Below are positions 805 to 60,843 of a stretch of 64,000 nt of DNA, one piece after another (position 1 is the stretch's first letter; each line of letters starts with the position of its first letter). Source of the stretch: a bacterium (lineage in GTDB: Bacteria; Patescibacteriota; Minisyncoccia; UBA6257; UBA9933); assembly GCA_021791445.1 (NCBI GenBank), contig JAJYWO010000002.1, positions 21,757-85,756 on the forward strand, in the 5' to 3' direction. Below the pieces are notes generated by a model that searched no databases, was not told the origin of the DNA, and saw only the letters and a program-made list of their open reading frames with translations. Made by a program: the position numbers and the translations under genes.

Positions 805-840
805 TTAAACGGTCGAAGAATAATATTAGAATATTTAAAT

Positions 841-2130: not shown

Positions 2131-2137
2131 TTTTAAA

Positions 2138-3688: not shown

Positions 3689-3689
3689 A

Positions 3690-8979: not shown

Positions 8980-9002
8980 AAAGTTTATAAAGTTATAAAG
9001 TT

Positions 9003-9731
9003 TTAAATATTAAGATAGTTGCTCCACTTATCGTACAGTTCCTTCGTCGCTCTTAAATCGCCAGCGTTGTATCGGGCGATTTCCAAAAATTTTTTCTCTT
9101 TGTACAATCTGCCAACGTCGTCTCCGGTGACGCCGTCTTCTTTGGGGCTTTTTATGTTAAAAAGTTTGCTCCACAAATGCAGACTCCCCTTTTTGCGCAT
9201 ATTACCTTGAAAAGTGAGCTGGTCCGCCAAATCAATGTGCGTACAAGTTTTTTGTTGATATAAATACCGACTTTCGGAAAGATTTTTCGTGGGTCTGATA
9301 CCGTGATAAGCCGAGCGAATCATCAAAAACGGTCCGTCAAATTGCCGGCTGCTGAATCCGATAAATTCATCGTATATTTGGCTGCCCTTCCAGAAATGTT
9401 CCAACATTTCTTTTTCCGTCATTTGCTTGAAAGTGATGCCGTTTTCGCTGAATTCCTCTCCGCCAGCCGGCGGATTTTGTCCGGGCGCGCTGTAATAAAC
9501 AACCCCTTGGTTTTTCGCGTAATCCAAAACGCCGATTGCCACAATTTCTCCGGTTAAAGGCGAAAAACCGAGCCCGTTTTTCAGTTCTTCCAGAGCCACT
9601 TGATAATCCTCTTCTCCAGTTGATTCCTTTTTAATCCAGCGCGTCAAAGAATCTTGCGTTGTCTCGTCCAAAGAATCAAAATCAACTCCGATTGTCTCAA
9701 TATCAAAAATAAGCTTATTAGTTATTGACAT
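9003..9731 (-). CDS. RNase H-like 3'-5' exonuclease (DEDDy type)
   Basis: FDIET (Exo I), HIDLAD and Y-x3-D (YNAGD) motifs. Confidence 0.55.
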   Translation of the reverse strand: MSITNKLIFDIETIGVDFDSLDETTQDSLTRWIKKESTGEEDYQVALEELKNGLGFSPLTGEIVAIGVLDYAKNQGVVYYSAPGQNPPAGGEEFSENGITFKQMTEKEMLEHFWKGSQIYDEFIGFSSRQFDGPFLMIRSAYHGIRPTKNLSESRYLYQQKTCTHIDLADQLTFQGNMRKKGSLHLWSKLFNIKSPKEDGVTGDDVGRLYKEKKFLEIARYNAGDLRATKELYDKWSNYLNI

Positions 9732-13714: not shown

Positions 13715-14836
13715 TCAAATTATCACCCCGCCGCCAAGCATTTCGCCTTTTTTGTCGTAGAATACGGCGGATTGGCCGGGAGCTATAAATTTAACAGGCG
13801 CGTCAAATTCAATTTTCAATTTTGAATTCTGAATTTTCAATTTCGCCGAAACTAATGGTTGGCGATAACGCACTCGCGCGTAAATTGTTATTCGCTTATT
13901 CGCGCGAATTAGAGAATAACAATTTGGATTTATAAAATTTACACCTGTCAATTGGATTTCTTTTCTGTATAACGCCGGACTATCTTCTCCTTCGGCAACC
14001 ACAATAATATTTTTCTTTATATTTTTTTCAACCACATAATATGGCTTTTTGGAGCCGCCGATGCCCAATCCGTGCCGCTGGCCGATGGTGTAAAAATGCG
14101 CGCCTTTGTGTTTGCCTATTTTTTTGCCGAAAATATCCAAAACATTCCCCCTTTTTTCGGGAATGTATTTTTTTAAAAAATCATCAAGCGAAACTTTTCC
14201 CAAAAAACAAATTCCCTGTGAATCCTTTTTTTCGGCTGTCGCCAATCCGGCTTTTTTGGCGATTTTTCGCACTTCGTTTTTCAAATAACCGCCAATCGGG
14301 AAAAGACAATGCTTTAATTGTTTCTGCGTCAAAGTCCAAAGGAAATACGATTGATCTTTATTTGTGTCTTTGGCTTGCCAAAGACTAAATTTTGAATTTT
14401 GAATTTTGAATTTTGAATTTGTTTGGGATTTGGGATTTCGAATTTGGGATTTTTGCAAGCGGACATAATGACCGCTTGCGATGTAATCCGCTCCCATTTT
14501 CAACGCTTTATTCAGAAATAAGCCGAACTTAATTTCGCGATTACACATCACATCCGGGTTCGGCGTAATCCCCTTCTTATATCCTTTTACCATATATTCC
14601 ACCACTTTCTTTTTGTATTCTTCTTCAAAATCCCAAACGTAAAAAGGAATTTTCAATTTTTCAGCCACGCGGCGAGCGTCTTCGGCGTCGCGCTCGCTGC
14701 ATCCGTCTAAATTATAACAGCGCATAAAAACACCGACTACTTTATAGCCTTGTTTTTTTAATAATAAAGCGGCGACGCTGGAATCAACGCCGCCCGACAT
14801 TGCCACAAATACAGTTTTCTTATTATTTTTCTTCAT
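13715..14836 (-). CDS. mnmA: tRNA 2-thiouridylase MnmA
   Basis: VFVAMSGGVDSSVAA PP-loop. Carries two in-frame heptamer repeats, at 13808-13845 and 14406-14473. Confidence 0.9.
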   Translation of the reverse strand: MKKNNKKTVFVAMSGGVDSSVAALLLKKQGYKVVGVFMRCYNLDGCSERDAEDARRVAEKLKIPFYVWDFEEEYKKKVVEYMVKGYKKGITPNPDVMCNREIKFGLFLNKALKMGADYIASGHYVRLQKSQIRNPKSQTNSKFKIQNSKFSLWQAKDTNKDQSYFLWTLTQKQLKHCLFPIGGYLKNEVRKIAKKAGLATAEKKDSQGICFLGKVSLDDFLKKYIPEKRGNVLDIFGKKIGKHKGAHFYTIGQRHGLGIGGSKKPYYVVEKNIKKNIIVVAEGEDSPALYRKEIQLTGVNFINPNCYSLIRANKRITIYARVRYRQPLVSAKLKIQNSKLKIEFDAPVKFIAPGQSAVFYDKKGEMLGGGVII

Positions 14837-20331: not shown

Positions 20332-22044
20332 ATGGATGTCAAGGATTTAATTAGGGATTATTTTAATGATGATGAAAAGCGGCTTATCAGGCGCGCTTTT
20401 GATTTTGCCAAAAAACAGCACCAAGGGCAGAAAAGAAAATCCGGCGAGCCGTATTTTACCCATTGTTTTCAAACCGCGCTAAAACTTGCCGAATGGCAAA
20501 TGGACGCTACGACAATCTCCGCCGGTTTGCTTCACGATGTTATTGAAGATACGAAAATCCCGCTGGAAAATTTTAAAAAAGAATTTGGCGAAGAAATCGC
20601 TTTTCTTGTTGACGGCGTCACGAAAATCGGACGTGTGAAATATCGCCAGCAAAATGGTGAAGTGACCGCCATACAATCGGAAAATATCCGCAAGATGATT
20701 TTGGCGTTGAGCCAGGATTTACGCGTCATATTCATCAAACTCGCCGACCGATTGCATAATATGAAAACGCTCGGCGCTCTGCCTCCGCAAAAACAAAAAA
20801 GGATCGCCTTGGAAACCGCGGAAATTTACTCGCCTATCGCCTATCGCTTGGGAATGGCGAATTTGGCCGGCGAATTGGAAGATTTAGCCTTCCCCTTTCT
20901 TCATCAAAAAGAATATAAATGGCTTTCGGAAAACATTAAAGAAAAATTTGAAGAGCGCCAGAAATATTCGGAAAAAGTGAAAATTGAAGTTGAAAAAGCG
21001 CTGAAAGAGCACAAAATAGAGCCGATAAAAATAGATTTCCGCGCCAAAAGATACAGCAGTTTGTATAAAAAATTGTTCCGGACCAGTATGAATCTGGAAC
21101 AGATTTACGATTTAGTGGCGTTGAGAATAATTGTGAAAACAGTTGAAGAATGCTACGCGGTTTTGGGCATTATTCATCAACTTTGGCCGCCTATGCCCGG
21201 CAGAATAAAAGATTATATTGCCATGCCGAAGCCGAACGGCTATCGCAGTTTGCACACCACGGTTTTCTGCGTTGACAACAAGCCGACCGAATTTCAAATC
21301 AGGACTGCGGAAATGCATGAGGAAGCGGAAAACGGCATCGCGGCTTATTGGGCTTATTCCCAGGCAAAAAGCGGCAAAGATTATCAAAAAAAGAAAGCGA
21401 TTTTCGCGGAGAAAAAGGAATTGGCGTGGATTAACCAATTAAAAGAATGGCAGGGAGAAACCGCTGGTTCCGAAGAATTTCTGCAATCATTGAAAATAGA
21501 TTTTTTAAAAGACAGGATTTTCGCCATTACTCCCAAGGGCGAGGTTGTTGATTTGCCGGCTGGTTCCACTCCGGTGGATTTCGCTTATATGATTCATACG
21601 GACATAGGCAACCAATGCGTCGGCGTGAGGATTAACGGTAAAATAATGCCGCTTGATTATCAACTGCAATCCGGAGATTTGGTGGAAATTCTGGTGCAAA
21701 AAAGCAAAAAACCGTCGCAATCCTGGCTTGAATTCGCCAAAACTTCCATTGCCAAAAAAAGAATCAAGGCGGCGCTCAGAGGTTTGCCGAGCATTATGCG
21801 CGGAAAATCCGATATATTTGAATTCAAAATAATCGCCGAAGACAGAGTTGGGTTGATTAAGGATGTTTCATCGGTGTTTTCCCGGAGCCATATTAACATT
21901 CAAAATCTCAATACCGCCGATATGGCGGAACAATCGGTAGTCAGGGCGCGCTGCGAAATAAACGAGGAAAAAACCGCCAAGTTATTGGTCTTGAAATTGA
22001 AAAAAATAAAAGGAGTAAGGGAAATAAGTTTTAGGAGGGCTTAG
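20332..22044 (+). CDS. rsh: Bifunctional (p)ppGpp synthetase/hydrolase (RelA/SpoT homolog)
   Basis: HD domain (HDVIEDT), synthetase motif RIKDYIAMPKPNGYRSLHTTV, TGS and ACT regions. Confidence 0.9.
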   Translation: MDVKDLIRDYFNDDEKRLIRRAFDFAKKQHQGQKRKSGEPYFTHCFQTALKLAEWQMDATTISAGLLHDVIEDTKIPLENFKKEFGEEIAFLVDGVTKIGRVKYRQQNGEVTAIQSENIRKMILALSQDLRVIFIKLADRLHNMKTLGALPPQKQKRIALETAEIYSPIAYRLGMANLAGELEDLAFPFLHQKEYKWLSENIKEKFEERQKYSEKVKIEVEKALKEHKIEPIKIDFRAKRYSSLYKKLFRTSMNLEQIYDLVALRIIVKTVEECYAVLGIIHQLWPPMPGRIKDYIAMPKPNGYRSLHTTVFCVDNKPTEFQIRTAEMHEEAENGIAAYWAYSQAKSGKDYQKKKAIFAEKKELAWINQLKEWQGETAGSEEFLQSLKIDFLKDRIFAITPKGEVVDLPAGSTPVDFAYMIHTDIGNQCVGVRINGKIMPLDYQLQSGDLVEILVQKSKKPSQSWLEFAKTSIAKKRIKAALRGLPSIMRGKSDIFEFKIIAEDRVGLIKDVSSVFSRSHINIQNLNTADMAEQSVVRARCEINEEKTAKLLVLKLKKIKGVREISFRRA

Positions 22045-22492: not shown

Positions 22493-23554
22493 TTATTTAG
22501 GATTCAGTTTTTCAATAATCCCTCTGATTTCTTCGGGTGAGAAGAATGAAATGATAATTTTCCCCTTTTCTCCTTCTCCGCCGGCCGGCGGATCTATTTT
22601 CACCGGAGCGCCGAGAAGTTCCATCAACTGTTCCTGTAAGGCGCCGAGTTCCGGGTCTGTTGTTGGAATTTTCGCGTCTGCCGGCTGGCGGATGGTTTTT
22701 TCTTCCGTTGGTTTTGTTTCGCGCCTGATTTTATTTTTTAATTCCCTGACGCTTAAATTATTCGCCAAAAGGTCGTAAAAAGCCGCCATCTGCTGGCTTA
22801 AGTCGTTAATGGTCAAAAGCAACCTCCCTTGGCTGTCGTTTATTTTTCCTTCCGCGAGCGCGTCTTGGATTTCCGTGGGCAGATTCAAAAGTCGTATCGT
22901 GTTGGCGATTGTTTCACGGCTCTTGCCGAGCTTGGCGGCAATTTCCCTTTGAGTCAAACCAAAATGGTCTTGTAATTTGGCGTAAGCTCTGGCGGTTTCA
23001 ATGGAATTAAGATTGGCGCGCTGGATATTTTCCACAATCGCCATTTCCATTTGCGGAGCGCCCGGAGCGATTCTTTTAATAATCGCCGGAATCCGCTCAA
23101 GTCCCGCCAATTTTGAAGCCATCAATCGGCGTTCTCCGGCGATAAGCTGATATTCAATTTGCGTGCCGTTTTCAACTTCGTGTTCTATTTTCGTAACAAC
23201 TATAGGTTGAATAATTCCGAATTCGCGGATTGACGCCGCCAGTTCTTTAAGCGATTCTTCGTCAAAAGTTTTTCGCGGCTGGAAAGGATTGGGTTTTATT
23301 TTTTCTATTTCAATATGAAAAATCGCGTCTTTGTGGAAAGAAGATTTTTCTTCCACTGATTGCGGTTTAACTGCTTGCGGCTGTTCTTGCAGTTGCGTTT
23401 GCTGCGGCTGGACTTGCGGTTGAGAAACTTGCGCTTGTTGAATTTGCGGCGCGAATTCGTGATAATGTTCTGTATCCGTCAAAGGCAGCATAAACGGCGC
23501 TTCTTCCTGCGGCTGTTGAGATTGTTGGGGTTGTTGAATATTTTGTTCGTCCAT
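22493..23554 (-). CDS. parB: ParB/Spo0J-like partition protein with a Gln/Pro-rich N-terminal extension
   Basis: ParB N-domain (GIIQPIVV..GERR) and HTH. The first ~70 aa are Q/P-rich low complexity. A copy of the REP hairpin sits in frame at 22687-22702. Confidence 0.8.
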   Translation of the reverse strand: MDEQNIQQPQQSQQPQEEAPFMLPLTDTEHYHEFAPQIQQAQVSQPQVQPQQTQLQEQPQAVKPQSVEEKSSFHKDAIFHIEIEKIKPNPFQPRKTFDEESLKELAASIREFGIIQPIVVTKIEHEVENGTQIEYQLIAGERRLMASKLAGLERIPAIIKRIAPGAPQMEMAIVENIQRANLNSIETARAYAKLQDHFGLTQREIAAKLGKSRETIANTIRLLNLPTEIQDALAEGKINDSQGRLLLTINDLSQQMAAFYDLLANNLSVRELKNKIRRETKPTEEKTIRQPADAKIPTTDPELGALQEQLMELLGAPVKIDPPAGGEGEKGKIIISFFSPEEIRGIIEKLNPK

Positions 23555-24228: not shown

Positions 24229-24240
24229 AATTAAATAAAA

Positions 24241-24266
24241 ATACCCGATATTGTCGGGTATTTTTA
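24241..24266 (-). terminator. Terminator after dnaJ
   Basis: Hairpin atacccgatattgtcgggtat plus a T-run. Confidence 0.5.
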
Positions 24267-24267
24267 T

Positions 24268-25383
24268 TTAATCCATTTCTTTTTTTAAATCCTCCAATAT
24301 TTTTTTCGCTTTCGCATTCGGTTTTTTCGGGGTTTTGATTTTCAGTTCAACAACCAGATTACCGCGGCCGTGCGAGCCGAAAATCGGCATCCCCTGTTTT
24401 GAAATTATCAAATCTCCTTTCAAATCAAAATTTTCCGGAATTTCAATCTGGATTTTATTGCCGTCAATCGTTGGCGCTTCAATTTTTTCTCCCAATAAAA
24501 TATCAACCAGCTTCACTTCTTTTTTAACAAACAAATCATTTCCGCGCCTGTTGAAAATATGATGCGGCTTTATTTTGATTCGAACATAAAGGTCGCCGGT
24601 TCCCGCCCCTTTTTCTCCGGCTTCGCCCGCGCCTTGAACTTTTATTAATTGTCCGTCCATTATGCCCGCCAAAATTTCAATTTTTACATTGCGTTCGCCG
24701 GAAATTCTTCCGGCGCCGCGGCAATTATGGCAAACTTTTTTCGGAATCTGTCCGCTGCCTTGGCATTCTTTGCATTGTTTGATTTGGGTAAAATTGCCGA
24801 AAAAGGTGCTTCTCGCTTCTTTAATCTCTCCCCTGCCTCCGCAAACAGCGCATTTTTCCAATCCTTCTTTAATATCATAGCCTTTGCTTTCGCATTTTTC
24901 GCAAGAAACGGAAATGCCGTATTTTAATTCTTTTTTCGCGCCGTAAAAAGCTTCTTCAAGCGTTATTTCCTGGATAATTTCAACATCCGCTCCGCGATGG
25001 TAAGTGCGGCGTTTTTGTCTTACGCCCATTCCTTCGAAAAACGCGTTGAAAATATCGCCCAAGTCGGCCATATCGCCGAAAGCCGAAGGGTCCCAGCCCG
25101 AGGCTGGTCCGCCTTGGGCGGAAAAATCAAATCCGAATCCAAACGGACCGTTTCCATCGGAAGCGAATCCGCTTTGGCCGTCAAAAACCCTGCCGTATTT
25201 GTCATATTGCTCCCGCTTGTTTTTATCCGACAAAACCGCGTACGCCTCGGCGATTTCCTTGAATTTTTTTTCATCGCCGCTTTTTTTGTCCGGATGATAT
25301 TGATGCGCTAATTTTCGGAAAGCTTTTTTAATTTCGTCTTCCGACGCGCCTTTGTTTATGCCGAGAATTTTATAGTAATCCAA
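24268..25383 (-). CDS. dnaJ: Chaperone DnaJ
   Basis: J domain with HPDK and four CxxCxGxG repeats. Apparent TTG start. Confidence 0.9.
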
Positions 25384-25465
25384 CGCAGTTCATAAAGTTA
25401 TAAAGTTATAAAGTTATAAAGTAAAATTTAGAAAACTTTATAACTTTAAAAACATTATAAACTTT

Positions 25466-26470
25466 CTACTTTAATATAATTATCTCCTTGCTTCTTCCTT
25501 CAAGCTCCACATTGGCGAAACCGAACGCCAAAAGAAGTTCGTAGATTATGAACGCCAAAAAAGAAATTATCAAGCGAACCGGCATCGCCAAAATTTCCAA
25601 AGTCATAAAAATAGTCAATACGATGCCGATTAAAATTATTGATTTGATATTTTCCGGAAAAGAATTGAATTTGTATTTCGCCGCCTCGTAAAGCGCTTCG
25701 CTGATTTTAAGATTTCCGCTTACGGGCGCGCCGATGAAATCAACGGCTTTCGCTTCAATTTCTCCGGCCGCTTGTTTGACCATTAAATTTTTGACGGCTT
25801 TCGGCAAAATGCTTAATTCCGGAGTCTGTTCAATCTGTTTTTTCGCCAGACTTTCGGCGAATTCTTTGAATGTGAGCGATAAATCCAATTCAGGATAAAA
25901 TTTTTGCGCCACTAAAACCGAAGGCGACAAGATTTTATTAAAATTAGACTCGGAAATGAAAAAATCTTTTTTCTCCGCGGAATCGGCGTAAATGTAAACA
26001 ACGCTTATAAATAAGAAAATGGCCGCCACGGCCTTCGGCAAAACCGTTTTGCTTATTTTCCAAAAGCTCACTTTAAGCGAATTTTTAAGTTCCCTGATTC
26101 CGTTAAGATTAGCCGCGATCAACGCCAAAAAAACAAAAGCGATTCCGATTAATATCGCGGTATTGGAAACATTGTCGTAAAAAGCCGCCAACAATCCCGC
26201 GCAACTCAAAAAAATCGCCAAAACGCTGATTTTAAAGCTTTTAATGAAAAGCGTTTGCAAAAGAAAAATTATCAGGAAAATAGTTACGGATAATCCGGAA
26301 AATAAAAGAAAATTTCCTTCGTTGCCTTGAAAAAATAATTTAAAAAAATAACCGAAAGCGGAAAGCGAGGCAATGCTTAAAACCGCCAAAACGGCGATTT
26401 TAAGCATTGACCTGTCGGTATCAACCGAATTCGCAATTGTATTACTGCTGCTGTTGTTGTCCTGAGTCAT
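25466..26470 (-). CDS. Polytopic membrane protein of unknown function, between dnaK and dnaJ
   Basis: Multiple hydrophobic helices. No motif assigned. Confidence 0.45.
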
Positions 26471-28277
26471 CTTGTTTTGGTTGATTATACATCGCCGCGC
26501 CGATTTTTTGAAGCTCCGCGGAAAGTTCGGCTGTTTTTGATTTAATCGCTTCCATATCTTGTCCGTCTTTGACTGATTTTAATTCCGTTATTTTAGCGTT
26601 CACCGCGTCTTTAACTTCTTGTGAAACTTTATCGCCGGCTTCGGTAACCGCTTTTTCAGCGGCGTAAACCGCCTGCTCCGCGATATTTTTCGCTTCAATT
26701 AATTCTTTCTTTTTCCTGTCTTCCTCGGCGTGCGCCGCGGCTTCTTGTTTCAATTTTTCTATTTCGTCTTTGGAAAGCTGGGTTGACGCTTCAATGCGCA
26801 CGGTTTGAGTTTTGTTTGTGGCTTTGTCTTTCGCCGAAACGCTCAAAATTCCGTTGGCGTCAATGTCAAAAACGACTTCCACTTGCGGGATGCCGCGGGG
26901 AGACGGCGGAATGCCGTCCAAAATAAATCTGCCCAGTGTTTTATTGTCAGTCGCCATCGCGCGCTCTCCTTGTAAAATATGGATTTCAACGGATGTCTGA
27001 TTATCCGCCGCGGTTGAAAAAACTTGCGATTTGGAAGTCGGAACAGTCGTATTTTTTTCAATCAACGGAGTGAATACTCCGCCGAGAGTTTCAATTCCGA
27101 GTGAAAGCGGAGTAACGTCAAGCAAGAGAATGTCTTTAACGTCGCCCTGGAAAATTCCGGCTTGCACTGCGGCTCCAGATGCCACAACTTCATCGGGATT
27201 GATTCCTTTATGCGGTTCTTTGTTGAAAAGTTTTTTAACCGCTTCCTGAATTGCCGGCATTCTGGTTTGTCCACCGACAAGAACAATTTCATTAATGTCG
27301 GAAATTTTAAATCCCGCGTCTTCTATGGCTTTTTTGGTCAAATCAATTGAATGATTAATGTCTTCGGCCACCAATTCTTCCAACTTGGCGCGCGTCATTT
27401 TTATAACGAAATGTTTCGGTCCGGACGCGTCGGAAGTGATGTACGGCAGATTGATTTCCGTTTCAAAAGCAGTTGAAAGTTCGTGTTTGGCGCGTTCCGC
27501 CGCTTCTTTCAATCTTTGCAGCGCCAATGGATCTTTGGAAATATCAATGCCTTCCTGTTTCTTGTATTCTTCAACCAAAAATTGGATTATCTTCTTGTCA
27601 AAATCGTCTCCGCCAAGATGAGTGTCGCCGCCCGTGCCTTTCACTTCAACCACATCGTCGCCGACTTCCAAAATGGAAATGTCAAAAGTTCCGCCGCCAA
27701 AATCGTAAACAACGATTTTTTCGTTTTTCTGGCGGTTTAAGCCGTAAGCCAGAGCCGCGGCCGTGGGTTCGTTGATGATTCTGCGGACTTTAAGGCCGGC
27801 TATTTCTCCGGCGTTTTTCGTGGCCTGCCTTTGAGAATCGTCAAAATACGCCGGAACCGTGATAACGGCTTCTTCTATTTTTTCTCCGGTTTTCGCCTCG
27901 GCGTCGGCTTTTAATTTCGCCAAAACCATGGCGGAGATTTCTTCCGGCTTATACCACTTGTCGCCCATTTTCACTTCAACGCCTCCGGTTGAAGATTTTT
28001 GAATGTCAAACGGAAACCACGCTTTGTCTCTTTGCACTTCCGCATCGTCAAAATTGCGGCCAATAAGGCGTTTTACCGAAAAAATCGTGTTTTTCGGATT
28101 AACGACTCCCTGGCGCTTCGCCAAGAGCCCAATCAATCGTTCGTTATTTTTGTTTAGCGCCGCAACTGACGGAGTGGTGCGATTGCCTTCGTAATTTTCC
28201 AGAATCTTCGGTTCGCCCGCTTCCACTATCGCCATCGCCGAATTTGTTGTTCCTAAATCTATACCTAAAATTTTCAT
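26442..28277 (-). CDS. dnaK: Chaperone DnaK (Hsp70)
   Basis: [18 protein letters not shown] and the Hsp70 signatures. Confidence 0.95.
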
Positions 28278-28298: not shown

Positions 28299-28790
28299 TT
28301 ATTTACTTATTTTTACCCTTGCCGGCCTGACCAGTTTACCGTGCAATAAATATCCTCTTTCCACTTCTTCAACAATCGCGCCACTCGGCTTATCCGAATC
28401 AACGCTCACAATCGCTTCCTGTAAAGATGGGTCGAACGGCTGCCCGGTTGAAATAATAACTCGTTCCAAACCGTTTTGTTTAAGAATATCCTCCAATTGT
28501 GCCCTGATTAAATAAATACCCTTTTCCACTTTGCCTTCCTTTTCCAATGCCGCCAGAGCCAAATCAAAGCTGTCCAAAACCGTTATCAAATCTTTAATAA
28601 TCGCTTCTTGGGAAAATTTCGCCATCATTTCAAATCTTTTCATCTCGTCTTTCTTGTAATTTATCAAATCCGCTTTCGCCCGCTTCCATCCGTCAAGATA
28701 TTCATCGCGCTCTTTTTGGCATTTGTTTAATTCATTATTTTCTCCGTTTATTTCAGATTTTTGTTCGTCGTTTTTTTGAATATCGTCCAT
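28299..28790 (-). CDS. grpE: Nucleotide exchange factor GrpE
   Basis: GrpE coiled-coil plus a C-terminal beta domain. Positioned upstream of dnaK. Confidence 0.85.
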   Translation of the reverse strand: MDDIQKNDEQKSEINGENNELNKCQKERDEYLDGWKRAKADLINYKKDEMKRFEMMAKFSQEAIIKDLITVLDSFDLALAALEKEGKVEKGIYLIRAQLEDILKQNGLERVIISTGQPFDPSLQEAIVSVDSDKPSGAIVEEVERGYLLHGKLVRPARVKISK

Positions 28791-28864
28791 TGTATAATTA
28801 TAAATATGTTTTCATAAAATATTTATTTTCGACCATTCGCTTTATAAACATTTATCTTATAAAA

Positions 28865-28902
28865 TATAACATTTTATCTACGATCGCAAATAAAATGTTA
28901 TA
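28865..28902. promoter_or_regulatory. 38-bp palindromic operator TATAACATTTTATCTACGATCGCAAATAAAATGTTATA, about 75 nt upstream of grpE
   Basis: Inverted repeat seen in the sequence. It belongs to the four-member family, with the others at 28990, 29688 and 45311. Confidence 0.5.
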
Positions 28903-28989
28903 TTTTAATAATAATATCTATTTTTAATAAATCAATAGTAAATTATATAGATAAAATATAGTTAATTCAATTTTAGAATAAAAATAAAA

Positions 28990-29027
28990 TATAACAAATT
29001 GTTTACGATCGTAAGTAATTTGTTATA
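28990..29027. promoter_or_regulatory. Second palindromic operator TATAACAAATTGTTTACGATCGTAAGTAATTTGTTATA
   Basis: Inverted repeat with a central TTACGATCGTAA. Lies between the regulator stop and grpE. Confidence 0.5.
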
Positions 29028-29038
29028 CAATATTAAAA

Positions 29039-29662
29039 TTATTCTTCAAAATTTTTAAATTTTTCAAATATTCCGTCATCATCTATTTCTCCAATAGTAA
29101 TCATTCTAATACATTGATAGAGATTTTTCCTTAAAATATCCTCATAAACATCTTCTTCAATGGGTCGCTTTCCCATAAAAACACTTCTCTGTATTGGTTG
29201 ATAATTTATTGACAATAATTGAAATCTTAACCAGTCGCGTTCTTTTCTTTTCTTCTCGGGGATATCAAACATCACCATTCTCCATTTACCGTCCCATGTT
29301 TCCCGCTCCGGTTTATTTTCTTTGTTCTTTAAAAAATCGATTATTTTCAAGCCGGCCGAAGTAATATGATATTTCCTGCCTTTTTTCGTTATCAATCCTT
29401 TTTGCTGAAGCCGCCACAGCGTTGTTCGCGCGCTGTTTTTTCTCATATTTTGCAGTTCGTCGTAATAATCCCAAAAATTCCCGAGATTTGCCATTTTGCC
29501 GTAGCTTCTTCCCAAACTATGTCCGCCGGTTTCCAAAATTTCCGAAAGCGCGGCTGTTCCCCTTTCCGCCAGTCCGAAAATCAGGGCCAAGCCGGCCATA
29601 CTGACATTAATCGGCAATTCTTCAACGGTTTTTTTTAGTTGTTTTTTATTTATGCCGGACAT
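29039..29662 (-). CDS. PaaX-like transcriptional regulator (N-terminal wHTH plus PaaX_C-like domain), in the position usually held by hrcA
   Basis: The wHTH region reads LGRSYGKMANLGNFWDYYDELQ...TTLWRLQQKGLI. The C-terminal WDGKWRMVMFDIPE..R..R..LR..L...QRSVFM matches the PaaX C-domain pattern. Confidence 0.55.
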   Translation of the reverse strand: MSGINKKQLKKTVEELPINVSMAGLALIFGLAERGTAALSEILETGGHSLGRSYGKMANLGNFWDYYDELQNMRKNSARTTLWRLQQKGLITKKGRKYHITSAGLKIIDFLKNKENKPERETWDGKWRMVMFDIPEKKRKERDWLRFQLLSINYQPIQRSVFMGKRPIEEDVYEDILRKNLYQCIRMITIGEIDDDGIFEKFKNFEE

Positions 29663-29687
29663 TTATTATTTTTTATTCCGCATTAAA

Positions 29688-29731
29688 AAGTATAACATCT
29701 TACTGCCGATCGGCAATGAAATGTTATACTT
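29688..29731. promoter_or_regulatory. Palindromic operator AAGTATAACATCTTACTGCCGATCGGCAATGAAATGTTATACTT, 26 nt upstream of the regulator gene and divergent from cysS
   Basis: Near-perfect 44-bp palindrome of the same family. Confidence 0.5.
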
Positions 29732-29803
29732 TTTGTATTTTATTAATATCCTTGGAGTTGTCAATAGTTGCGCATAAAGAGGAAATTTAATAGAATTAAC
29801 GCA

Positions 29804-31165
29804 ATGATTAATCTTTATAATACTCTCGCCCGGAAAAAACAGACCTTTAAACCGTTAAGGGGCAAAAATGTCGGAATTTACACTTGCGGACCCACAGTTT
29901 ACAATTTCGCCCATCTTGGAAATTTAAGAACTTATATTTTTGAGGATATTTTGAGGCGCGTTTTAAAATATAACAGCTATAAAGTTAAGCAAATAATGAA
30001 TATAACCGATGTGGAAGATAAAATCATCAAAAAAGCCCAGCAAGAAAAAAAGAATATCAACCAAATTACCAAACCTTACGCGAAAATTTTTCTTGAAGAT
30101 TTGAAGAAATTGAGCATTGAAAAAGCGGAAAAATATCCGCTGGCGACGAAACACATTAAAGAAATGATCGCTTTAATAAGCGGCTTAATAAAAAAAGGCA
30201 TTGCTTATAAAGGAGAAGACGGCTCAATATATTTCAACATTCAAAAATTCAAGAATTACGGCAAACTCTCGCAACTCCAAAAAAGAGAAATTAAAATCGG
30301 CGCAAGAGTGAGCGCTGACGAATACAACAAAGAACAAGCGCAGGATTTTGTTTTATGGAAAACGAAAAAACTAAATGAGCCGTTTTGGAAAAGTCCGTTC
30401 GGCGACGGCCGGCCGGGTTGGCATATTGAATGTTCGGCAATGGCGATGAAATATCTCGGCAAGACCTTTGACATTCACGCCGGCGGCGTTGATTTGATAT
30501 TCCCCCATCATGAAAACGAAATCGCTCAGTCCGAAGCCGCGACCGGAAAAAAATTCGTCAATTACTGGCTGCACGGAGAGCATCTTTTGGTCAATAACGA
30601 AAAAATGTCAAAATCTCTTGGCAATATTTATACTTTGCGCGATTTAGAGCAAAAAAATTTCAATCCCCTTGCCTTTCGCTATCTTGTTTTGACTTCCCAT
30701 TACCGCTCAAAATTGAATTTTACTTGGGAAAGTTTGCAGGCGGCGCAAAATGCGCTAAACAATTTACATAATGAAATGATAATAATTAACGCCGATAAAA
30801 AATCAGCATCAATCAGTGAAAATCAGCGTAAATTAGCGTATGAAAAACAATTTTTAGATGCGATTAATGACGACTTAAACACGCCAAAAGCCATAGCTTT
30901 GGTACGGAAAATTGTTAAAGATAAAAATCTTTCTTCAAACGCCAAAAAAAGCCTTGTTTTAAAACTTGATAAAGCGCTTGGATTGGGGTTGAAAAACGTA
31001 AAATCTGAGAAAATTCCGCTTAAAATCAAACAAATGGCGGATGAACGGGATAAATTAAGAGCAAATAAACAGTTTATCCCCGCCGACCTCTTGCGAAAAA
31101 AAATAGAAGAATTAGGATACATTGTAGAAGACACCGCCGCAGGGCCAAAAATTTTAAGAAAATAA
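29804..31165 (+). CDS. cysS: Cysteinyl-tRNA synthetase
   Basis: MINLYNTL..R start, HLGNLRTY (HIGH) and KMSKS. The ATG at 29804 is preferred over 29768. Confidence 0.9.
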   Translation: MINLYNTLARKKQTFKPLRGKNVGIYTCGPTVYNFAHLGNLRTYIFEDILRRVLKYNSYKVKQIMNITDVEDKIIKKAQQEKKNINQITKPYAKIFLEDLKKLSIEKAEKYPLATKHIKEMIALISGLIKKGIAYKGEDGSIYFNIQKFKNYGKLSQLQKREIKIGARVSADEYNKEQAQDFVLWKTKKLNEPFWKSPFGDGRPGWHIECSAMAMKYLGKTFDIHAGGVDLIFPHHENEIAQSEAATGKKFVNYWLHGEHLLVNNEKMSKSLGNIYTLRDLEQKNFNPLAFRYLVLTSHYRSKLNFTWESLQAAQNALNNLHNEMIIINADKKSASISENQRKLAYEKQFLDAINDDLNTPKAIALVRKIVKDKNLSSNAKKSLVLKLDKALGLGLKNVKSEKIPLKIKQMADERDKLRANKQFIPADLLRKKIEELGYIVEDTAAGPKILRK

Positions 31166-32497
31166 ATGAACATCAAATTGCCTCCGCAAGACATAGAAGC
31201 CGAGCGTTCCGTGTTGGGAGCGCTCATGCTGGACAAAAACGCCATCATCAGAGTGGCGGATTTAATCACAGCCGAAGATTTCTACCAGCCATCGCATTCA
31301 AAAATTTTTAAAGTCATTTCCGATCTTTTTAATAAAAACGAGCCGGTTGATATTTTAAGCGTTACCAACAAATTAAAAGATGGAAAACAATTAGCGGATA
31401 TCGGCGGTTCAAGTTATCTGACGGAGATTGTGAGCGGCGTTCCGACCGCGAGCCATATCGCCCATTACGCGAAAATAATCCGCGACAAAAAAGTTTTGCG
31501 CGAATTGATTACAACTTCTTCTGAAATCGCGGAAAGGGTTTTTGATAGCCAAAAAGATTCCGAAAATCTGCTTGATGAGATAGAACAAAGAATTTTTTCC
31601 ATCGCCCAAAAATCAAATCCGAAAAATTTCATCCACCTAAAAGACGAACTTAAAGACGCTTATGAAAGAATTGAAAAACTGCATCAGGGAGAGAAAGGAT
31701 TGCGCGGCGTGACAACCGGCTTCAGCGAAATAGACCATTATCTTTCCGGACTTCAAAAATCCGATTTGGTGATTCTCGGCGCCAGACCGTCGGTCGGAAA
31801 AACGACTTTTGTCCTTGATATCGCCCGCAACGCGGCCGCGGCCGGACACGCCACGGCAATATTCTCCCTTGAAATGTCCCGCGAACAGATTGTTGACAGA
31901 TTTATTTCATCAGAAGCCAAAGTGCCTTTGTGGCGGCTTAGAACGGGTCGCTTGACTGACGAAATAGACTTCCAGATGATTCAAGAGGCGTTAGACAAAT
32001 TGTCGCAACTGCCGATTTTTATTGACGACACGCCGTCGCCGAATATTCTGCAAATACGAGCAATGGCAAGGCGTTTGCAAGCGGAAAACCCGAATCTCGG
32101 ACTCATTGTTATTGACTATGTCCAACTTGTTATGCCGCGGACCAATTCGGAAAATATGGTTCAGCAATTTACGGAAATCAGCCATGGATTAAAAGCGCTG
32201 GCGAGAGAGCTTAATCTGCCGGTTTTGGCGGTTTCCCAGCTTAACCGCGCTGTTGACCAAAGAGAAGTGAAAATCCCCCGTTTGTCCGACCTTCGCGAAA
32301 CCGGATCTTGGGAACAGGACGCGGATGTTGTGATGTTTATTTACCGTAAAGACCGCGATAAGCTCAATCCCACGCTTGAAGAACAAAATATGGCGGAAAT
32401 TATCATTGCCAAACACAGAAACGGGCCGATTGGTTCGGTGCAGCTGAAATTTGACCCGGAAAAAGTGAGCTTCAGCCAGATAGATAAGCTGCATTAG
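31166..32497 (+). CDS. dnaB: Replicative DNA helicase DnaB
   Basis: N-terminal DnaB domain and Walker A GARPSVGKTTF. Confidence 0.9.
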   Translation: MNIKLPPQDIEAERSVLGALMLDKNAIIRVADLITAEDFYQPSHSKIFKVISDLFNKNEPVDILSVTNKLKDGKQLADIGGSSYLTEIVSGVPTASHIAHYAKIIRDKKVLRELITTSSEIAERVFDSQKDSENLLDEIEQRIFSIAQKSNPKNFIHLKDELKDAYERIEKLHQGEKGLRGVTTGFSEIDHYLSGLQKSDLVILGARPSVGKTTFVLDIARNAAAAGHATAIFSLEMSREQIVDRFISSEAKVPLWRLRTGRLTDEIDFQMIQEALDKLSQLPIFIDDTPSPNILQIRAMARRLQAENPNLGLIVIDYVQLVMPRTNSENMVQQFTEISHGLKALARELNLPVLAVSQLNRAVDQREVKIPRLSDLRETGSWEQDADVVMFIYRKDRDKLNPTLEEQNMAEIIIAKHRNGPIGSVQLKFDPEKVSFSQIDKLH

Positions 32498-43927: not shown

Positions 43928-45304
43928 TTATTCTCCTTTTATAACCGCCACGGGAACCAAGCGCGCGACTTTTTTTGACAATCCGGCTTGATGGGTAATT
44001 TCAACGACTTCGTCTATATTTTTGTACGCCTGCGGCGCTTCTTCGGCGATGCCGCGCATTGAATAACATTTCACTATGATATTTTTACTTCTTAAATTTT
44101 CGACAATCTCTTTCCCGGATAATGTTTTTATCGCCTGATGCCGGCTCATCATTCTGCCCGCGCCATGAGCCGAAGAATAAAACGCTTCCTTGCCGCTTTC
44201 TTGGCCGATTAAAACATAAGAAGCCGTTCCCATTGAACCCGGAATCAAAACCGGCTGGCCGGGGAAAGCCCGTGTGGCGCCCTTGCGATGAACTATTAAA
44301 TTATTCTCAATTTTAGCGATATTATGCGCGACATCGTATAAAACACTCAACCCTCGGCCATTTAACGCTTTATCCCACACTTGCCGAACATAATGAGTAA
44401 TCATTTGCCTGTTCGCCCAGGCGAAATTCGCTCCGCAAGCCATTGCCTTGAAAAATCTTTGGCCTTCCGCGGAATTAAACGGCGCGCAAGCCAATTCCCT
44501 ATCCGGCAATTCAATGCCGTATTTCGGCATCACTTGAACCATTAAGCGAATATAATCCGTGGCAATCTGATGCCCTAAACCGCGGCTGCCGGTGTGAATC
44601 ATTACAACGACTTGATTCTCAAATAAGCCGAATTTTTTGGCGGTTTCTTTATCGTATATTTTATCAACTTTCTGAATTTCCAAAAAATGATTGCCCGAGC
44701 CGAGCGTGCCGACTTGATCTCGGCCGCGATTTTTCGCAATTTGCGAAACTTCTAAAGCGTCCGCCCAATCCAATTTGCCGTTAGATTCGCAATTTTCAAT
44801 ATCCTGTTTTTCGCCGAATCCTCGTCTTACAATTTCCTGCGCTCCGTTTTCCAAAATTTTATCCAATTCGGAAACGTTTAATTTCTGCAGATGCCCCCTG
44901 CCTAATCCTGATGGCACAGTTCTTTGGATTTCCGTTGCCAAAGCGTCAAGATGATTTTTGATTTCATCAATAAAAATATTTGATTTCAATAATCTCACCC
45001 CGCAATTCTGATCATAACCCACGGCGCCCGGAGAAATTACGCCACCCTCAACGCGTGTGGCGAAAACGCCGCCGATAGGACTGCCATATCCTTCATGCGC
45101 GTCCGGCATCACAATCGCGTATTTTTCAATCCCCGGAAGCGTCGTCAAATTAACCAACTGCTCCAAGCTTCTGTCCTGAAAAATATATTCCAGCATTTTT
45201 TCGCTGGCGTAAATTCTTGCCGGCACTTTCATATCGCTCCGAAAAGATTTGGGGATTTCCCATAAATAATCGCTGATTTTAATTAAATCTTGTTTATTTA
45301 TCAT
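43928..45304 (-). CDS. rtcB: RNA 3'-phosphate ligase RtcB
   Basis: Conserved RtcB histidine-containing segments: HTGSRGLGHQ, HNIAKIE and SAHGAGR. Confidence 0.9.
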   Translation of the reverse strand: MINKQDLIKISDYLWEIPKSFRSDMKVPARIYASEKMLEYIFQDRSLEQLVNLTTLPGIEKYAIVMPDAHEGYGSPIGGVFATRVEGGVISPGAVGYDQNCGVRLLKSNIFIDEIKNHLDALATEIQRTVPSGLGRGHLQKLNVSELDKILENGAQEIVRRGFGEKQDIENCESNGKLDWADALEVSQIAKNRGRDQVGTLGSGNHFLEIQKVDKIYDKETAKKFGLFENQVVVMIHTGSRGLGHQIATDYIRLMVQVMPKYGIELPDRELACAPFNSAEGQRFFKAMACGANFAWANRQMITHYVRQVWDKALNGRGLSVLYDVAHNIAKIENNLIVHRKGATRAFPGQPVLIPGSMGTASYVLIGQESGKEAFYSSAHGAGRMMSRHQAIKTLSGKEIVENLRSKNIIVKCYSMRGIAEEAPQAYKNIDEVVEITHQAGLSKKVARLVPVAVIKGE

Positions 45305-45310
45305 TTATTT

Positions 45311-45356
45311 AAAGTATAACATTTTGTTGTCGATCGACAACAAAATGTTATACTTT
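45311..45356. promoter_or_regulatory. 46-bp perfect palindrome AAAGTATAACATTTTGTTGTCGATCGACAACAAAATGTTATACTTT, 6 nt upstream of the rtcB ATG
   Basis: Same family as the grpE and regulator operators. No Shine-Dalgarno sequence lies between it and the ATG. Confidence 0.55.
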
Positions 45357-45378: not shown

Positions 45379-45900
45379 TTACAATCTAAATCTCTCCAAA
45401 ATTTCGTATTCCGCGCCGTTGCGCGATAAATGCGAGCGCATAATTATAAATTCTTCGACTATTTCTCGCCAATTGATTTTATCGTCTATTTTTTTAACGG
45501 GAAAATTTTTAAAATCTTCCGGCCGAAAGCGCGCCAAAGTTAAATGCAGTAAAAAATCGTTTCTTTCGCTCGGCATATTCAGCGCGTTTTCCAATAATTT
45601 CTTCAATTCAATAATTTGCTTCGGCGTTTTACCGATTGCCCAAATTAAGCGTGGCGAATAACTATTTGTACCAAAAGAAACTTTTTCAAAATTCATTTCA
45701 AAAGAACCGATTTTGCTTTCAATTGTCTTTAAAATATCCTTAACTTCGTCAATATTGTCTTCCTCCCACGGAGGAATTAAGGTAATATGAAGATTTTTGC
45801 CCTCCAACCAGCGCGCCGGCAAATCCGAATAAAATTCCCGATATTTCTCAATTTCCTTTTGCAATTTTTTCGAAATCGGAATGGCAATGAATATTCTCAT
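45379..45900 (-). CDS. thpR: 2H phosphoesterase (LigT/ThpR, 2'-5' RNA ligase)
   Basis: Two H-x-T-x motifs (HITLIP and HLTLAR). Confidence 0.75.
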   Translation of the reverse strand: MRIFIAIPISKKLQKEIEKYREFYSDLPARWLEGKNLHITLIPPWEEDNIDEVKDILKTIESKIGSFEMNFEKVSFGTNSYSPRLIWAIGKTPKQIIELKKLLENALNMPSERNDFLLHLTLARFRPEDFKNFPVKKIDDKINWREIVEEFIIMRSHLSRNGAEYEILERFRL

Positions 45901-46304
45901 ACATCAAAAACCAAAATAGTTTCCCATTCGCCTTTTTCGTTTTTCTTAATATCGGCTTCGTGGTAAGTGACAGCCTTGATATCTTCGTCAAAATTTTCAA
46001 CCGCTACGCCGTAAATTTCCGCTTTTAATTCTGTCTCGCTGAACTGTAAAAATTTTACATCAGCATAAATCTCTTTGTTTATTTGCGATTGCGCCAAAAC
46101 CTCGCTTAGAAAATCCACCAAAAGCGCTGTTTTGTCCGGCGATTGAATTTTAATCAGTTTTTTCGATATTGAAATTTGTGGTTTGTAATTTGGAATTTGA
46201 ACAAATGTCATTCCTTGTAACGCGTCGCGAAAAAGCGTTTCCAAATCTCCCGCCCTTACCGACATTCTCACATCCGCCGTATGTTTCAAAAATTTAAAAG
46301 GCAT
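45897..46304 (-). CDS. Archease (RtcB activator)
   Basis: N-terminus MPFKFLKHTADV matches the archease pattern and the size is right. Co-oriented with ligT and rtcB. Confidence 0.65.
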   Translation of the reverse strand: MPFKFLKHTADVRMSVRAGDLETLFRDALQGMTFVQIPNYKPQISISKKLIKIQSPDKTALLVDFLSEVLAQSQINKEIYADVKFLQFSETELKAEIYGVAVENFDEDIKAVTYHEADIKKNEKGEWETILVFDV

Positions 46305-49311: not shown

Positions 49312-50661
49312 ATGAAAATTGCAATCTTGGGATTCGGCAGCGAAGGAAAAGCGGTTTTGAAATTCCTTCAACAACGCGGACAGACGCGGAACAAACGCGG
49401 AATAACGCGGAATAATAATGAAATTTGGATTTTGGACAAAAATCATAATTTAAGGCCTCCGCAAGGCCTTCAATTTCAAGTTGGCGAAAATTATCTAAAA
49501 AACCTCGCTGATTTTGACATTGTTTTTCGCTCACCCGGAATCCCCTACAACTTGCCAGAAATTCAAAACGCGATTAAAAAAGGCGTAAAATTTTCCGGCG
49601 CCACAGACTTATTTTTTCAAAACGCCAGAAAAATCGGCTGTAAAATAATCGGCATTACCGGCACCAAAGGCAAGGGCACGATTTCAACTTTGCTTTACAA
49701 AATTTTGCGGAATGCCGGCAAAGATGTTTTTTTGGCGGGCAATATCGGCAAGCCCGCGTTGGATATTCTAGCGAAACTCAAAAAAAATTCCATCGTTATT
49801 TTGGAAATGTCCAGTTTTCAATTACAAGACTTACAACATTCTCCGGACATCGCCGTTGTTTTAAATGTTTTTGAAGATCATCTGGATAGCCATAAAAATT
49901 TTAAAGAATACATCAGCGCCAAGGCGCAAATTGCCAAATTCCAAAAACCAAATTCCAAAATATTCTATGACGCGAGCAATAAATGGAGCAAGTGGATTGC
50001 GCAAAAAAGCCCTGCCCAAAAATTCCCAATAAACCCTTTATTCTCTAATTCTGCAGAATTAGAGAATAAAGTAAAATCTGTCGTAAAAATACCGGGCGAA
50101 CATAATTTAAAAAACGCCGTAATAACGGCGACAGTGGCTAAATCCCTCGGCATTCCGGAAAATATCATCTTAAAAACCGTCAAAAACTACCGCGGCATGG
50201 AGCACCGCCTGGAATTGGTTCATTCCAACATTCTCAAGAATGTTGGAATGAATTTTTTTAACGATTCTGCTTCAACGAATCCTTATACAGCTGCGGCCGC
50301 GATTCGCGCTTTTCCGAATCAGCCGAAAATTTTAATCTGCGGAGGAAAAGACAAAAATCTTGACTACGCTCCCCTCGCCCAGGCATTAAAAAATTCTAAA
50401 ACGAAAATGGTAATTTTATTCGGCGAAAATAAAAAAAAAATAAATAAGGCAATCAATAATCAAAAACTAGCAATCAGGAAAGTGGAAAATCTACAACAAG
50501 CCGTTCAACTCGCCTACAAAACCGCTAAGCAATTACAACAATTAAAACAATATAACAATACAAACATCATCTTCTCCCCCGCCGCCGCCAGTTTTGACAT
50601 GTTTAAAGATTATAAAGACCGAGGCGAACAATTCAAAAAAATCGTGAAAAAGTTGAAATAA
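49312..50661 (+). CDS. murD: UDP-N-acetylmuramoylalanine--D-glutamate ligase
   Basis: MKIAILGFG N-terminus and GITGTKGKGT P-loop. In-frame decamer repeat (AACGCGGAAT)n at 49370-49412. Confidence 0.85.
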   Translation: MKIAILGFGSEGKAVLKFLQQRGQTRNKRGITRNNNEIWILDKNHNLRPPQGLQFQVGENYLKNLADFDIVFRSPGIPYNLPEIQNAIKKGVKFSGATDLFFQNARKIGCKIIGITGTKGKGTISTLLYKILRNAGKDVFLAGNIGKPALDILAKLKKNSIVILEMSSFQLQDLQHSPDIAVVLNVFEDHLDSHKNFKEYISAKAQIAKFQKPNSKIFYDASNKWSKWIAQKSPAQKFPINPLFSNSAELENKVKSVVKIPGEHNLKNAVITATVAKSLGIPENIILKTVKNYRGMEHRLELVHSNILKNVGMNFFNDSASTNPYTAAAAIRAFPNQPKILICGGKDKNLDYAPLAQALKNSKTKMVILFGENKKKINKAINNQKLAIRKVENLQQAVQLAYKTAKQLQQLKQYNNTNIIFSPAAASFDMFKDYKDRGEQFKKIVKKLK

Positions 50662-53953: not shown

Positions 53954-56038
<2,085 letters not shown>

Positions 56039-60670: not shown

Positions 60671-60705
60671 TAATAAAATTATACATATTTTCGGCAAATA
60701 AAAAA

Positions 60706-60821: not shown

Positions 60822-60843
60822 GAATACCAAACATACCAATAGC

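Follow-up and report, generated by a model that had tools for sequence, protein, structure and literature searches.

A PaaX-like protein and candidate cognate 44-bp palindromes at the grpE-dnaK-dnaJ operon of a Patescibacteria genome

The 64,000-nucleotide stretch analyzed here (the window; contig JAJYWO010000002.1 of GenBank assembly GCA_021791445.1, a member of the Patescibacteriota) carries a grpE-dnaK-dnaJ operon that is preceded by the gene for a 207-residue protein, which we term REG, and by members of a family of long palindromes (Table 1). The family has the 44-bp consensus AAGTATAACA-N9-CGATCG-N9-TGTTATACTT, and the window holds four copies in total, P1 to P4. P1–P3 surround REG, which immediately precedes grpE-dnaK-(membrane protein)-dnaJ, with 25 nt between the end of P3 and the REG start codon, and P2, the 3' palindrome of REG, occupies a position typical of the whole REG family. 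P4 lies 7 nt upstream of rtcB within a perfect 46-bp palindrome (45311–45356) that takes up most of the ligT-rtcB intergenic region. The conserved outer arms, TATAACA and TGTTATA, are arranged as 7-N24-7, 31 bp apart center to center. These observations bear out much of the original prediction, made by a model from the sequence, which had described four long palindromes with shared arms and a CGATCG core at starts within 3 nt of those computed here, two of them (P1 and P2) upstream of the chaperone operon, whose gene content was as stated, and one (P3) shortly upstream of the regulator gene.

We called 44-bp palindromes in the window at a cut-off of 18/22 arm pairs, below which P2 falls, and scanned the window with a position weight matrix (PWM) derived from 104 distinct related sites. 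P1–P4 scored 48.6–51.0 bits, the next position −10.1, and the best position among 20 shuffles −0.5; given this gap, there are exactly four sites in the window, far beyond chance. Weaker additional sites were rejected because the distribution of PWM scores is bimodal. The window contains no REG paralog.

Table 1. Coordinates of genes, palindromes, and candidate promoters in the window, followed by palindromes inside ksgA at related loci (cited by their L numbers)
Feature	Coordinates	Strand	Description
dnaJ-end inverted repeat	24230-24272	.	Perfect, 19 bp; at dnaJ stop codon; likely operon terminator
dnaJ	24268-25383	-	Pfam DnaJ, DnaJ_C, DnaJ_CXXCXGXG
Membrane protein gene	25466-26470	-	Multi-pass, unknown family; 334 aa; ~7 hydrophobic segments; between dnaK and dnaJ
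dnaK	26442-28277	-	Pfam HSP70, E = 5.9e-248
grpE	28299-28790	-	Pfam GrpE, E = 7.8e-38
P1 palindrome	28862-28905	.	AAATATAACATTTTATCTACGATCGCAAATAAAATGTTATATTT; 20/22 arm pairs; PWM 51.0 bits; 71 nt upstream of grpE start codon
Candidate grpE promoter	28942-28970	-	TTGAAT-17-TATAAT; between P2 and P1
P2 palindrome	28987-29030	.	AAATATAACAAATTGTTTACGATCGTAAGTAATTTGTTATACAA; <18/22 arm pairs; PWM 49.4 bits; 9 nt past REG stop codon
REG	29039-29662	-	207 aa; probable winged helix and Cas2-like (PaaX_M) middle domain; "mini-PaaX" without PaaX_C
P3 palindrome	29688-29731	.	AAGTATAACATCTTACTGCCGATCGGCAATGAAATGTTATACTT; 19/22 arm pairs; PWM 50.7 bits; between divergent cysS and REG
Candidate REG promoter	29737-29764	-	TTGACA-16-TAAAAT; 11/12 consensus positions
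cysS	29768-31165	+	Pfam tRNA-synt_1e, E = 2.1e-118; probable ATG 29805; divergent from REG, sharing P3
rtcB	43928-45304	-	RNA ligase; Pfam RtcB, E = 4.6e-161; proposed second target
P4 palindrome	45312-45355	.	22/22 arm pairs; PWM 48.6 bits
ligT	45379-45900	-	LigT-like 2',5' RNA ligase/phosphoesterase; Pfam LigT_PEase, E = 3.8e-14; upstream of P4
Archease gene	45897-46304	-	Pfam Archease, E = 3.9e-26; upstream of P4
ksgA-internal palindrome, L010	7258-7301		
ksgA-internal palindrome, L013	5815-5858		
ksgA-internal palindrome, L181	6781-6824		
ksgA-internal palindrome, L167	~6133		

The firmest Pfam match of REG is PaaX_M (PF20803; E = 5.4e-17, 62 bits against a cut-off of 24). CRISPR_Cas2 also passes (E = 4.6e-5, 24.0 bits against 23.8), as does, marginally and over the C-terminal half, the NCBIfam cas2 model (TIGR01573; 26.6 bits against 24.5). 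The winged-helix match is weak (HTH_45, E = 3.6e-4, 20.9 bits, below cut-off), the Pfam PaaX N-terminal domain gave no match, and neither did PaaX_C, the chain stopping ~20 residues past the Cas2-like domain. The PaaX equivalog model TIGR02277 gave 43.3 bits, far under its cut-off of 264.55. With a profile of 26 homologs the best PDB match was E. coli PaaX (8a39, E = 2e-4), aligned from the recognition helix and wing through the WDGKW motif. A Foldseek search with an AlphaFold2 model of REG (mean predicted local distance difference test 72; disordered insert at residues 44–63) likewise returned 8a39 first (E = 1.5e-5), then the PaaX-like structures 3l09 and 3kfw, then Cas2 chains. By sequence profile and predicted fold, REG is a distant relative of PaaX. 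Of the wHTH/PaaX_C-like regulator expected at this locus, the relationship to PaaX is supported and a winged helix is matched weakly; the domain itself proved to be PaaX_M, not PaaX_C.

PaaX, the repressor of phenylacetate catabolism known from E. coli and Pseudomonas (PDB 8a39, 3l09), resembles REG in its Cas2-like middle domain with WDGKW, in an operator made of short inverted repeats ~2.5–3 helical turns apart, and probably in its N-terminal winged helix. PaaX represses its own promoter via steric hindrance, and its C-terminal domain has been assigned phenylacetyl-CoA binding (PMC9493321). REG differs in lacking PaaX_C (207 aa versus ~316 aa), in the absence of paa genes nearby, where cysS, dnaB, and grpE-dnaK-dnaJ are found instead, in its proposed targets, grpE-dnaK-dnaJ and rtcB, and in a site whose palindrome extends through all 44 bp and has a conserved CGATCG center. 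The C-terminal half also superposes on Cas2 structures; unlike Cas2, it is fused to a probable winged helix and lies beside neither cas1 nor a CRISPR array, and the context of the family is one of housekeeping genes.

Homologs of REG are encoded by Candidatus Wolfebacteria and other Patescibacteria, and a full hidden Markov model search (E ≤ 1e-10) yielded 2,860 clusters (50% identity), whose top-scoring members are nearly all 170–220 aa long. An identical REG is encoded in assembly GCA_023474725.1. The PaaX_M domain is present in 94/94 homologs according to precomputed annotation, and D132, at the end of strand 1 (motif FDIPE), is invariant across the family. Viral contigs (IMG/VR) held no relatives, and beyond PaaX_M, the Cas2-like fold, and the winged helix, REG matched no transposase, HUH/Y1, or nuclease family. 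Identity as a defense system was set aside, PADLOC having returned weak Cas2 matches only, and a CRISPR context was ruled out by the housekeeping neighbors and by the lack of any CRISPR-like array in a tandem-repeat scan of the window.

Palindromes accompany REG genes far beyond this genome. We examined 79 loci with REG homologs, from GTDB species representatives drawn from 375 matches, counting 44-bp palindromes with at least 17/22 arm pairs. Their density was 1.36/kb directly beside the REG homolog, 0.061/kb in the remainder of these loci, and 0 in shuffled sequence, a 22-fold enrichment over the rest of the loci. A palindrome lay upstream of the REG homolog in 35 of the 79 loci and downstream in 39, with both sides occupied in 22. 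The palindrome centers differ by lineage (among them CGATCG, CGGCCG, CCATGG, CTATAG, and TCATGA), as do the arms, and a center of the CGATCG type is conserved within each REG subfamily. Site and recognition helix vary together; for example, NSARTILWRL pairs with TATAACA/CGATCG, NNxKVILYRL with ATTACA, QKYQYSETINRM with TTACA/CGGCCG, and DRYRVxQA with TGTCA/TCATGA. Genomes with two paralogs have two palindrome types (L026/L052, L035/L067, and L043/L079). The spacing of the REG site, TATAACA-N24-TGTTATA (7-N24-7), matches the 6-N27-6 of the E. coli PaaX operator, TGATTC-N27-GAATCA (PMC9493321). From the enrichment beside REG genes, the co-variation with the recognition helix, and the PaaX-like geometry, we infer with high confidence that REG binds these palindromes, and the comparative case for REG proteins recognizing their sites as duplex DNA is strong.

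The order REG-grpE-dnaK-membrane protein-dnaJ recurs in seven GTDB species (L001, L002, L003, L005, L006, L017, and L021; REG identity 40%–66%), and at REG-grpE loci cysS usually lies divergently upstream. An exact-pattern scan of metagenome contigs, which returned 120 loci, revealed six further GrpE groups (95% identity) with a site upstream of grpE; this comparison of grpE upstream regions, which the original prediction had suggested, supports it, and the REG-palindrome-grpE arrangement is kept in at least 13 loci of a Wolfebacteria-like clade. Among genes that start beside a site, only REG (12), grpE (6), and cysS (5) recur across many 95%-identity groups, and the divergent cysS-REG pair with a palindrome is represented by 5 cysS groups at this identity. 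The 334-residue membrane protein gene, an unusual insertion for a dnaK operon, occupies the same position in L002, L005, L006, L017, and L021 (26%–69% identity), and its product had no match in Pfam or NCBIfam.

REG thus takes the place directly before grpE that hrcA holds elsewhere, as had been proposed from the window. CIRCE (controlling inverted repeat of chaperone expression), searched as TTAGCACTC-N9-GAGTGCTAA with up to 4 mismatches, is absent from the window and from every REG-grpE locus, and L035 supplies its sole match in the 1.48 Mb of sequence retrieved. REG has no HrcA match in Pfam or NCBIfam, and tblastn with a CPR (Candidate Phyla Radiation) HrcA, that of L035, came back empty in the window and the REG-grpE loci, in keeping with the earlier failure to see either CIRCE or hrcA in the window. 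L035, from the Moraniibacteriota, presents the canonical order: a perfect CIRCE (349–375), hrcA (572–1324; TIGR00331, 220.8 bits; apparently split across two reading frames), grpE, and dnaK (overall span 349–4159). A REG homolog (5886–6599) with its own CGGCCG-centered palindromes lies 2 kb downstream of that array, so that some CPR bacteria have both systems. Together, the lack of CIRCE at REG-grpE loci and the canonical order in L035 indicate that REG has the position of hrcA in one clade of CPR bacteria and that the canonical system persists in a different one.

The sites lie on or against candidate promoters of REG, grpE, and rtcB. At REG, P3 begins 6 nt past the −10 element of the candidate TTGACA-16-TAAAAT promoter and itself holds TTGCCG-16-TGTTATACT. 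A TTGACA-16-TAAAAT promoter followed at once by the palindrome is found both here and in L021/L095; in L001, L005, L017, and L132, TTGACA stands 15 nt upstream of the left-arm TATAAC, which occupies the expected −10 position of the REG promoter. At grpE, the right end of the palindrome abuts a consensus promoter, TTGACA-16/17-TATAAT, in L001/L100, L005, L021/L095, and L132, and in these four species the proximal arm falls at approximately −45 to −39. At rtcB, P4 carries the promoter-like TTGTCG-16-TGTTATACT on both strands, with the −10 element ending 8 nt before the ATG, and the rtcB mRNA may be leaderless or nearly so. Similar spacing precedes the REG start codons in L002 and L008, which suggests leaderless or nearly leaderless mRNAs there as well. 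A TATAACA-type motif also immediately precedes an archease gene in L126.

The overall explanation we favor, if with modest confidence, is that REG is a dimeric PaaX-type repressor of its own gene, of grpE-dnaK-X-dnaJ (X being the membrane protein gene), and of rtcB. In each subunit an N-terminal winged helix would be followed by a Cas2-like domain, and the dimer would read the 44-bp palindrome as duplex DNA with its winged helices on the outer arms. REG would repress its own promoter, a proposal based on P3 covering the −10/+1 region. It would also repress the chaperone promoter, which in this genome is bracketed by P2 and P1; their spacing of 125 bp center to center (~12 helical turns) suggests cooperative binding or a loop, whereas relatives would employ a single site abutting the −35 element of the grpE promoter. 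Repression of rtcB is proposed because P4 contains the entire promoter. Judged from the arrangement of sites and promoters, autoregulation together with control of the grpE-dnaK-dnaJ promoter, and in this genome of rtcB as well, is probable.

By analogy with HrcA and HspR, repression might be relieved by proteotoxic or other stress; that REG is a stress- or heat-responsive repressor functionally replacing HrcA is a tentative extension of this analogy, to which we give somewhat less than even credence. The resemblance to HrcA/CIRCE is one of functional analogy only: the gene for the regulator immediately precedes grpE-dnaK-dnaJ and is co-oriented with them, and inverted repeats mark its own and the chaperone promoters, near consensus sigma-70-type promoters. 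REG is, however, unrelated to HrcA in sequence or domains, its 44-bp site contrasts with the 9-N9-9 of CIRCE, and no link of REG to GroEL is known. HspR/HAIR (HspR-associated inverted repeat) of Actinobacteria and Helicobacter also involves an autoregulated repressor encoded in the dnaK operon with inverted repeats at the operon promoter, and feedback through DnaK is by analogy a plausible model for REG. HspR differs in being a MerR-type protein, with another fold and another site, whose gene lies at the 3' end of the operon. In L164, a palindrome of the same 44-bp class but of different sequence (3255–3298, TAATTACTATGATATCGGACGATCGTCGGATATAATAGTAATTC) lies ~23 nt upstream of a consensus TTGACA-16-TATAAT promoter ahead of groES-groEL, where no CIRCE was found. 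The contig also has a TATAACA-type site, placed between groEL and a lemA gene. These features hint that groESL may there be under the control of a REG paralog.

The position of the grpE sites leaves the sign of regulation less certain, as a site with its proximal arm around −41 could fit activation equally well. REG might activate or dually regulate the dnaK operon, contacting RNA polymerase near −41 at grpE while repressing itself, or it might answer a non-heat signal such as a small ligand. In four species the palindrome ends exactly at the grpE −35 hexamer, which puts its proximal arm where class II activators classically bind. Relatives of PaaX are controlled by ligands, and translation and envelope genes are among the targets in other species. 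Yet the grpE promoters already match the consensus, leaving an activator unneeded, the sites at REG and rtcB cover the −10/+1 region or the whole promoter, and REG lacks the domain to which phenylacetyl-CoA binding is assigned in PaaX. We regard this alternative as improbable.

Several further features sit uneasily with a plain promoter operator and weigh against the repressor model as stated. The palindrome-gene-palindrome unit occurs in all REG subfamilies, beside ksgA, rnhB/dnaE, thrS/gyrB, gyrA, recG, recJ, secA, and the serine hydroxymethyltransferase (SHMT) gene. The 3' palindrome is present even where the next gene is convergent (gyrA in L026, thrS in L056, an rpoC-like gene in L041); because it is family-wide, a site between REG and grpE is expected even if grpE is not regulated. 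Among exact motifs in the metagenome contigs, the 82 classifiable intergenic cases comprised 49 in tandem, 21 convergent, and 12 divergent contexts, and 12 further copies were intragenic, in MurC, RluD-like, and KsgA genes, which a plain promoter operator does not foresee. The genes at these non-promoter sites were verified as real (YchF/PMT, Obg/DEAD-box helicase, MurC, RluD-like synthase, and KsgA). The ksgA-linked REG subfamily has a third palindrome inside ksgA, ~570–650 bp past the one following REG (Table 1). Its position, in a variable linker, is fixed although the palindrome sequences differ by lineage, and the linker peptide tracks the palindrome, reading, for example, KCY for TGTTAT and KCN for TGTAAT. 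Mobile insertion into ksgA was rejected, as KsgA has no 15-residue insertion, and the site therefore evolved in place. Additional genes beside sites include fmt, dgkA, bipA/typA-like, htrA, map, maf, trxB-like, archease, DNA glycosylase, and gyrA genes; each of them is represented by 1–2 groups at 95% identity or by a single case. By gene content this set is loosely stress- and translation-flavored and points to a regulon wider than chaperones. In L121 (1–717), the gyrA directly downstream of a TATAACA-type site contains an intein splicing domain.

These results qualify the notion of a lineage-specific heat-shock repressor and operator pair. The pair at the dnaK operon stands; the palindrome class is not specific to chaperones, every REG subfamily having 5' and 3' palindromes, and a dedicated heat-shock regulator is only one reading among others. 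A heat-shock neighborhood for the entire family was likewise rejected, as other subfamilies adjoin ksgA, thrS, gyrA/B, dnaE, rnhB, recG, recJ, uvrD, secA, and the SHMT gene; clpB lies near another REG subfamily in one case, ~550 bp away.

The evolution of the arms is a second difficulty for simple operator function. Nine spacer positions vary among sites and are nevertheless complementary within a site in 60%–82% of cases, against 30%–53% expected. When the 5' and 3' palindromes of a locus are compared, changes in one arm coincide with changes in the other (odds ratio 12.6, p = 9e-32), and we counted 46 compensatory double changes. Some instances in which both arms differ come from the outermost bases, at which the copies consist of unrelated flanking DNA. 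A symmetric dimer does not by itself account for such co-variation, which selection for a hairpin or cruciform would predict, as would template-switch homogenization of quasi-palindromes, a known mutational process.

The palindromes might then be primarily hairpin or cruciform genomic elements, whether REP (repetitive extragenic palindrome)-like, bidirectional terminators or roadblocks, or genome-structuring, with REG as their binding or maintenance protein; adjacency to grpE would be incidental, the REG unit having merely been placed between cysS and grpE. REP sequences around a RAYT (REP-associated tyrosine transposase) gene and Ter or parS sites beside tus, rtp, or parB would be analogous. 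Besides the co-varying arms, this accounts for units that recur independently of their neighbors and for several paralogs per genome (L026/L052, L035/L067, L043/L079), each with its own palindrome. The distribution over tandem, convergent, divergent, and intragenic contexts resembles a random draw over gene boundaries, and a second palindrome family in the window is wholly intragenic. The RNA folds with U-rich tracts and the mismatch excess at REG-3' palindromes described below are of the same tenor. Copies are few, however: the 64-kb window has 4, and a contig of 660 kb has 3 exact matches. Synteny is stable in each subfamily, recent mobility is not in evidence, viral contigs lack relatives, and no transposase, HUH, or nuclease match was obtained save for the Cas2-like fold, which the repressor PaaX has too. 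The ksgA-internal site arose in place rather than by insertion, and sites upstream of grpE, fmt, and others hold their positions across species. Tandem sites lack a G·U bias, the palindromes were not picked up by a simple scan for terminators, and one site is situated between divergent genes, a place that makes no sense for a terminator. We consider this reading, the main rival, rather unlikely.

One parallel to it, REP/RAYT, shares with REG a single-copy gene flanked on both sides by cognate palindromes that are lineage-specific and co-vary with the protein, as well as additional copies between genes in all orientations. It differs in that REG has no HUH/tyrosine transposase domain, that the copy number of the REG sites is ~ten- to hundred-fold lower, and that their positions are conserved across species (at REG, grpE, cysS, fmt, and ksgA), some embedded in promoters and some evolved inside genes.

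Action at the level of RNA would make the palindromes hairpins in the 5' leaders and 3' ends of the REG, grpE, and rtcB mRNAs, acting on stability, attenuation, or translation, with REG either binding RNA or irrelevant. As RNA, P1–P4 form folds of −13 to −27 kcal/mol followed by U-rich tracts; for P2 the fold is −13.4 kcal/mol and is followed by UUUUAUUUUU. Transcription from the TTGACA-16-TAAAAT promoter would place P3 at the very 5' end of the REG mRNA, as its initial 44 nt, and winged-helix and ferredoxin-like folds are able to bind RNA. On the sense strand, G·T mismatches showed a weak excess over A·C at REG-3' palindromes (56 versus 22), with no bias at 5' palindromes (27 versus 23) or in 48 tandem sites (22 versus 30), so that selection for an RNA hairpin in general is unsupported by this test. 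Moreover, what is conserved at the center is a 6-bp dyad, not a free loop, strand is immaterial at sites between divergent or convergent genes, and in geometry the operator matches that of a homolog that binds DNA. Rfam contained no family for the palindromes, returning sub-threshold chance matches to miRNA-like hairpins only. An RNA-level explanation is, on balance, highly improbable.

A broader view, which we put forward as speculative and unlikely, is that the CPR "mini-PaaX" proteins (~190 aa, ~2,860 clusters) and their cognate perfect 44-bp palindromes form an unrecognized protein-palindrome system in which each paralog marks both sides of its own gene plus a few gene boundaries and coding regions. 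Recognition of a hairpin or cruciform would keep the arms self-complementary, and the link to dnaK would be one local consequence. Such a system could, for example, provide protein-dependent bidirectional transcription boundaries or roadblock terminators, or could be a domesticated element akin to REP/RAYT with a Cas2 fold as its basis.

CPR bacteria, or Patescibacteria, make up a large share of bacterial diversity and have tiny genomes with very few recognizable regulators; to our knowledge, control of their chaperone genes is essentially undescribed. The searchable literature yielded no description of the REG family or of chaperone regulation in CPR bacteria, and nothing that links PaaX-like proteins to dnaK or reports a regulator-site pair for this lineage. 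REG and its palindromes are probably a repressor-operator pair at the chaperone operon. If REG is a regulator, it would be the fifth or so independent negative control of the dnaK operon, beside HrcA, HspR, CtsR, and RheA, on a PaaX/Cas2-like scaffold. A large unannotated family would be assigned a function and a DNA motif, together with a specificity code relating recognition helix to arm sequence, and regulons of uncultured CPR genomes would then be predictable from sequence alone. Given the 3' and intragenic sites and the co-varying arms, the family is also a candidate for something beyond a classical operator, and there is a real chance that as a whole it does something less conventional.

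Other elements of the window merit brief description. The second 44-bp palindrome family shares GAATTAGAGAATAA and comprises copies at 13882–13925 (20/22 arm pairs) and 50032–50075 (18/22), inside mnmA (13715–14836, − strand) and a MurD-like ligase gene (49312–50661, + strand), respectively. The latter copy falls where the Mur_ligase_M domain ends, around residue 240, and a TATAACA-type palindrome is found at about the same spot in MurC of L080, L117, and L191. The surroundings of the chaperone locus (22493–23554, 31166–32497, 20332–22044, and 60705–63962) include parB, dnaB, a RelA/SpoT-type (p)ppGpp enzyme gene, 23S and 5S rRNA genes, and nine tRNA genes; between the 5S and 23S genes, a 26-nt inverted repeat (60842–60867 and 60906–60931) is probably a processing stem. 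Between the membrane protein gene and dnaJ, directly upstream of the latter, 8-bp tandem repeats (TTTATAAC / AGTTATAA; 4–5 copies, 25387–25422) have a unit that includes the TATAAC of the palindrome arm and may represent an internal promoter or else a regulatory element in its own right. Similar arrays occur at 8964–9007, 54177–54214, and 56284–56323.

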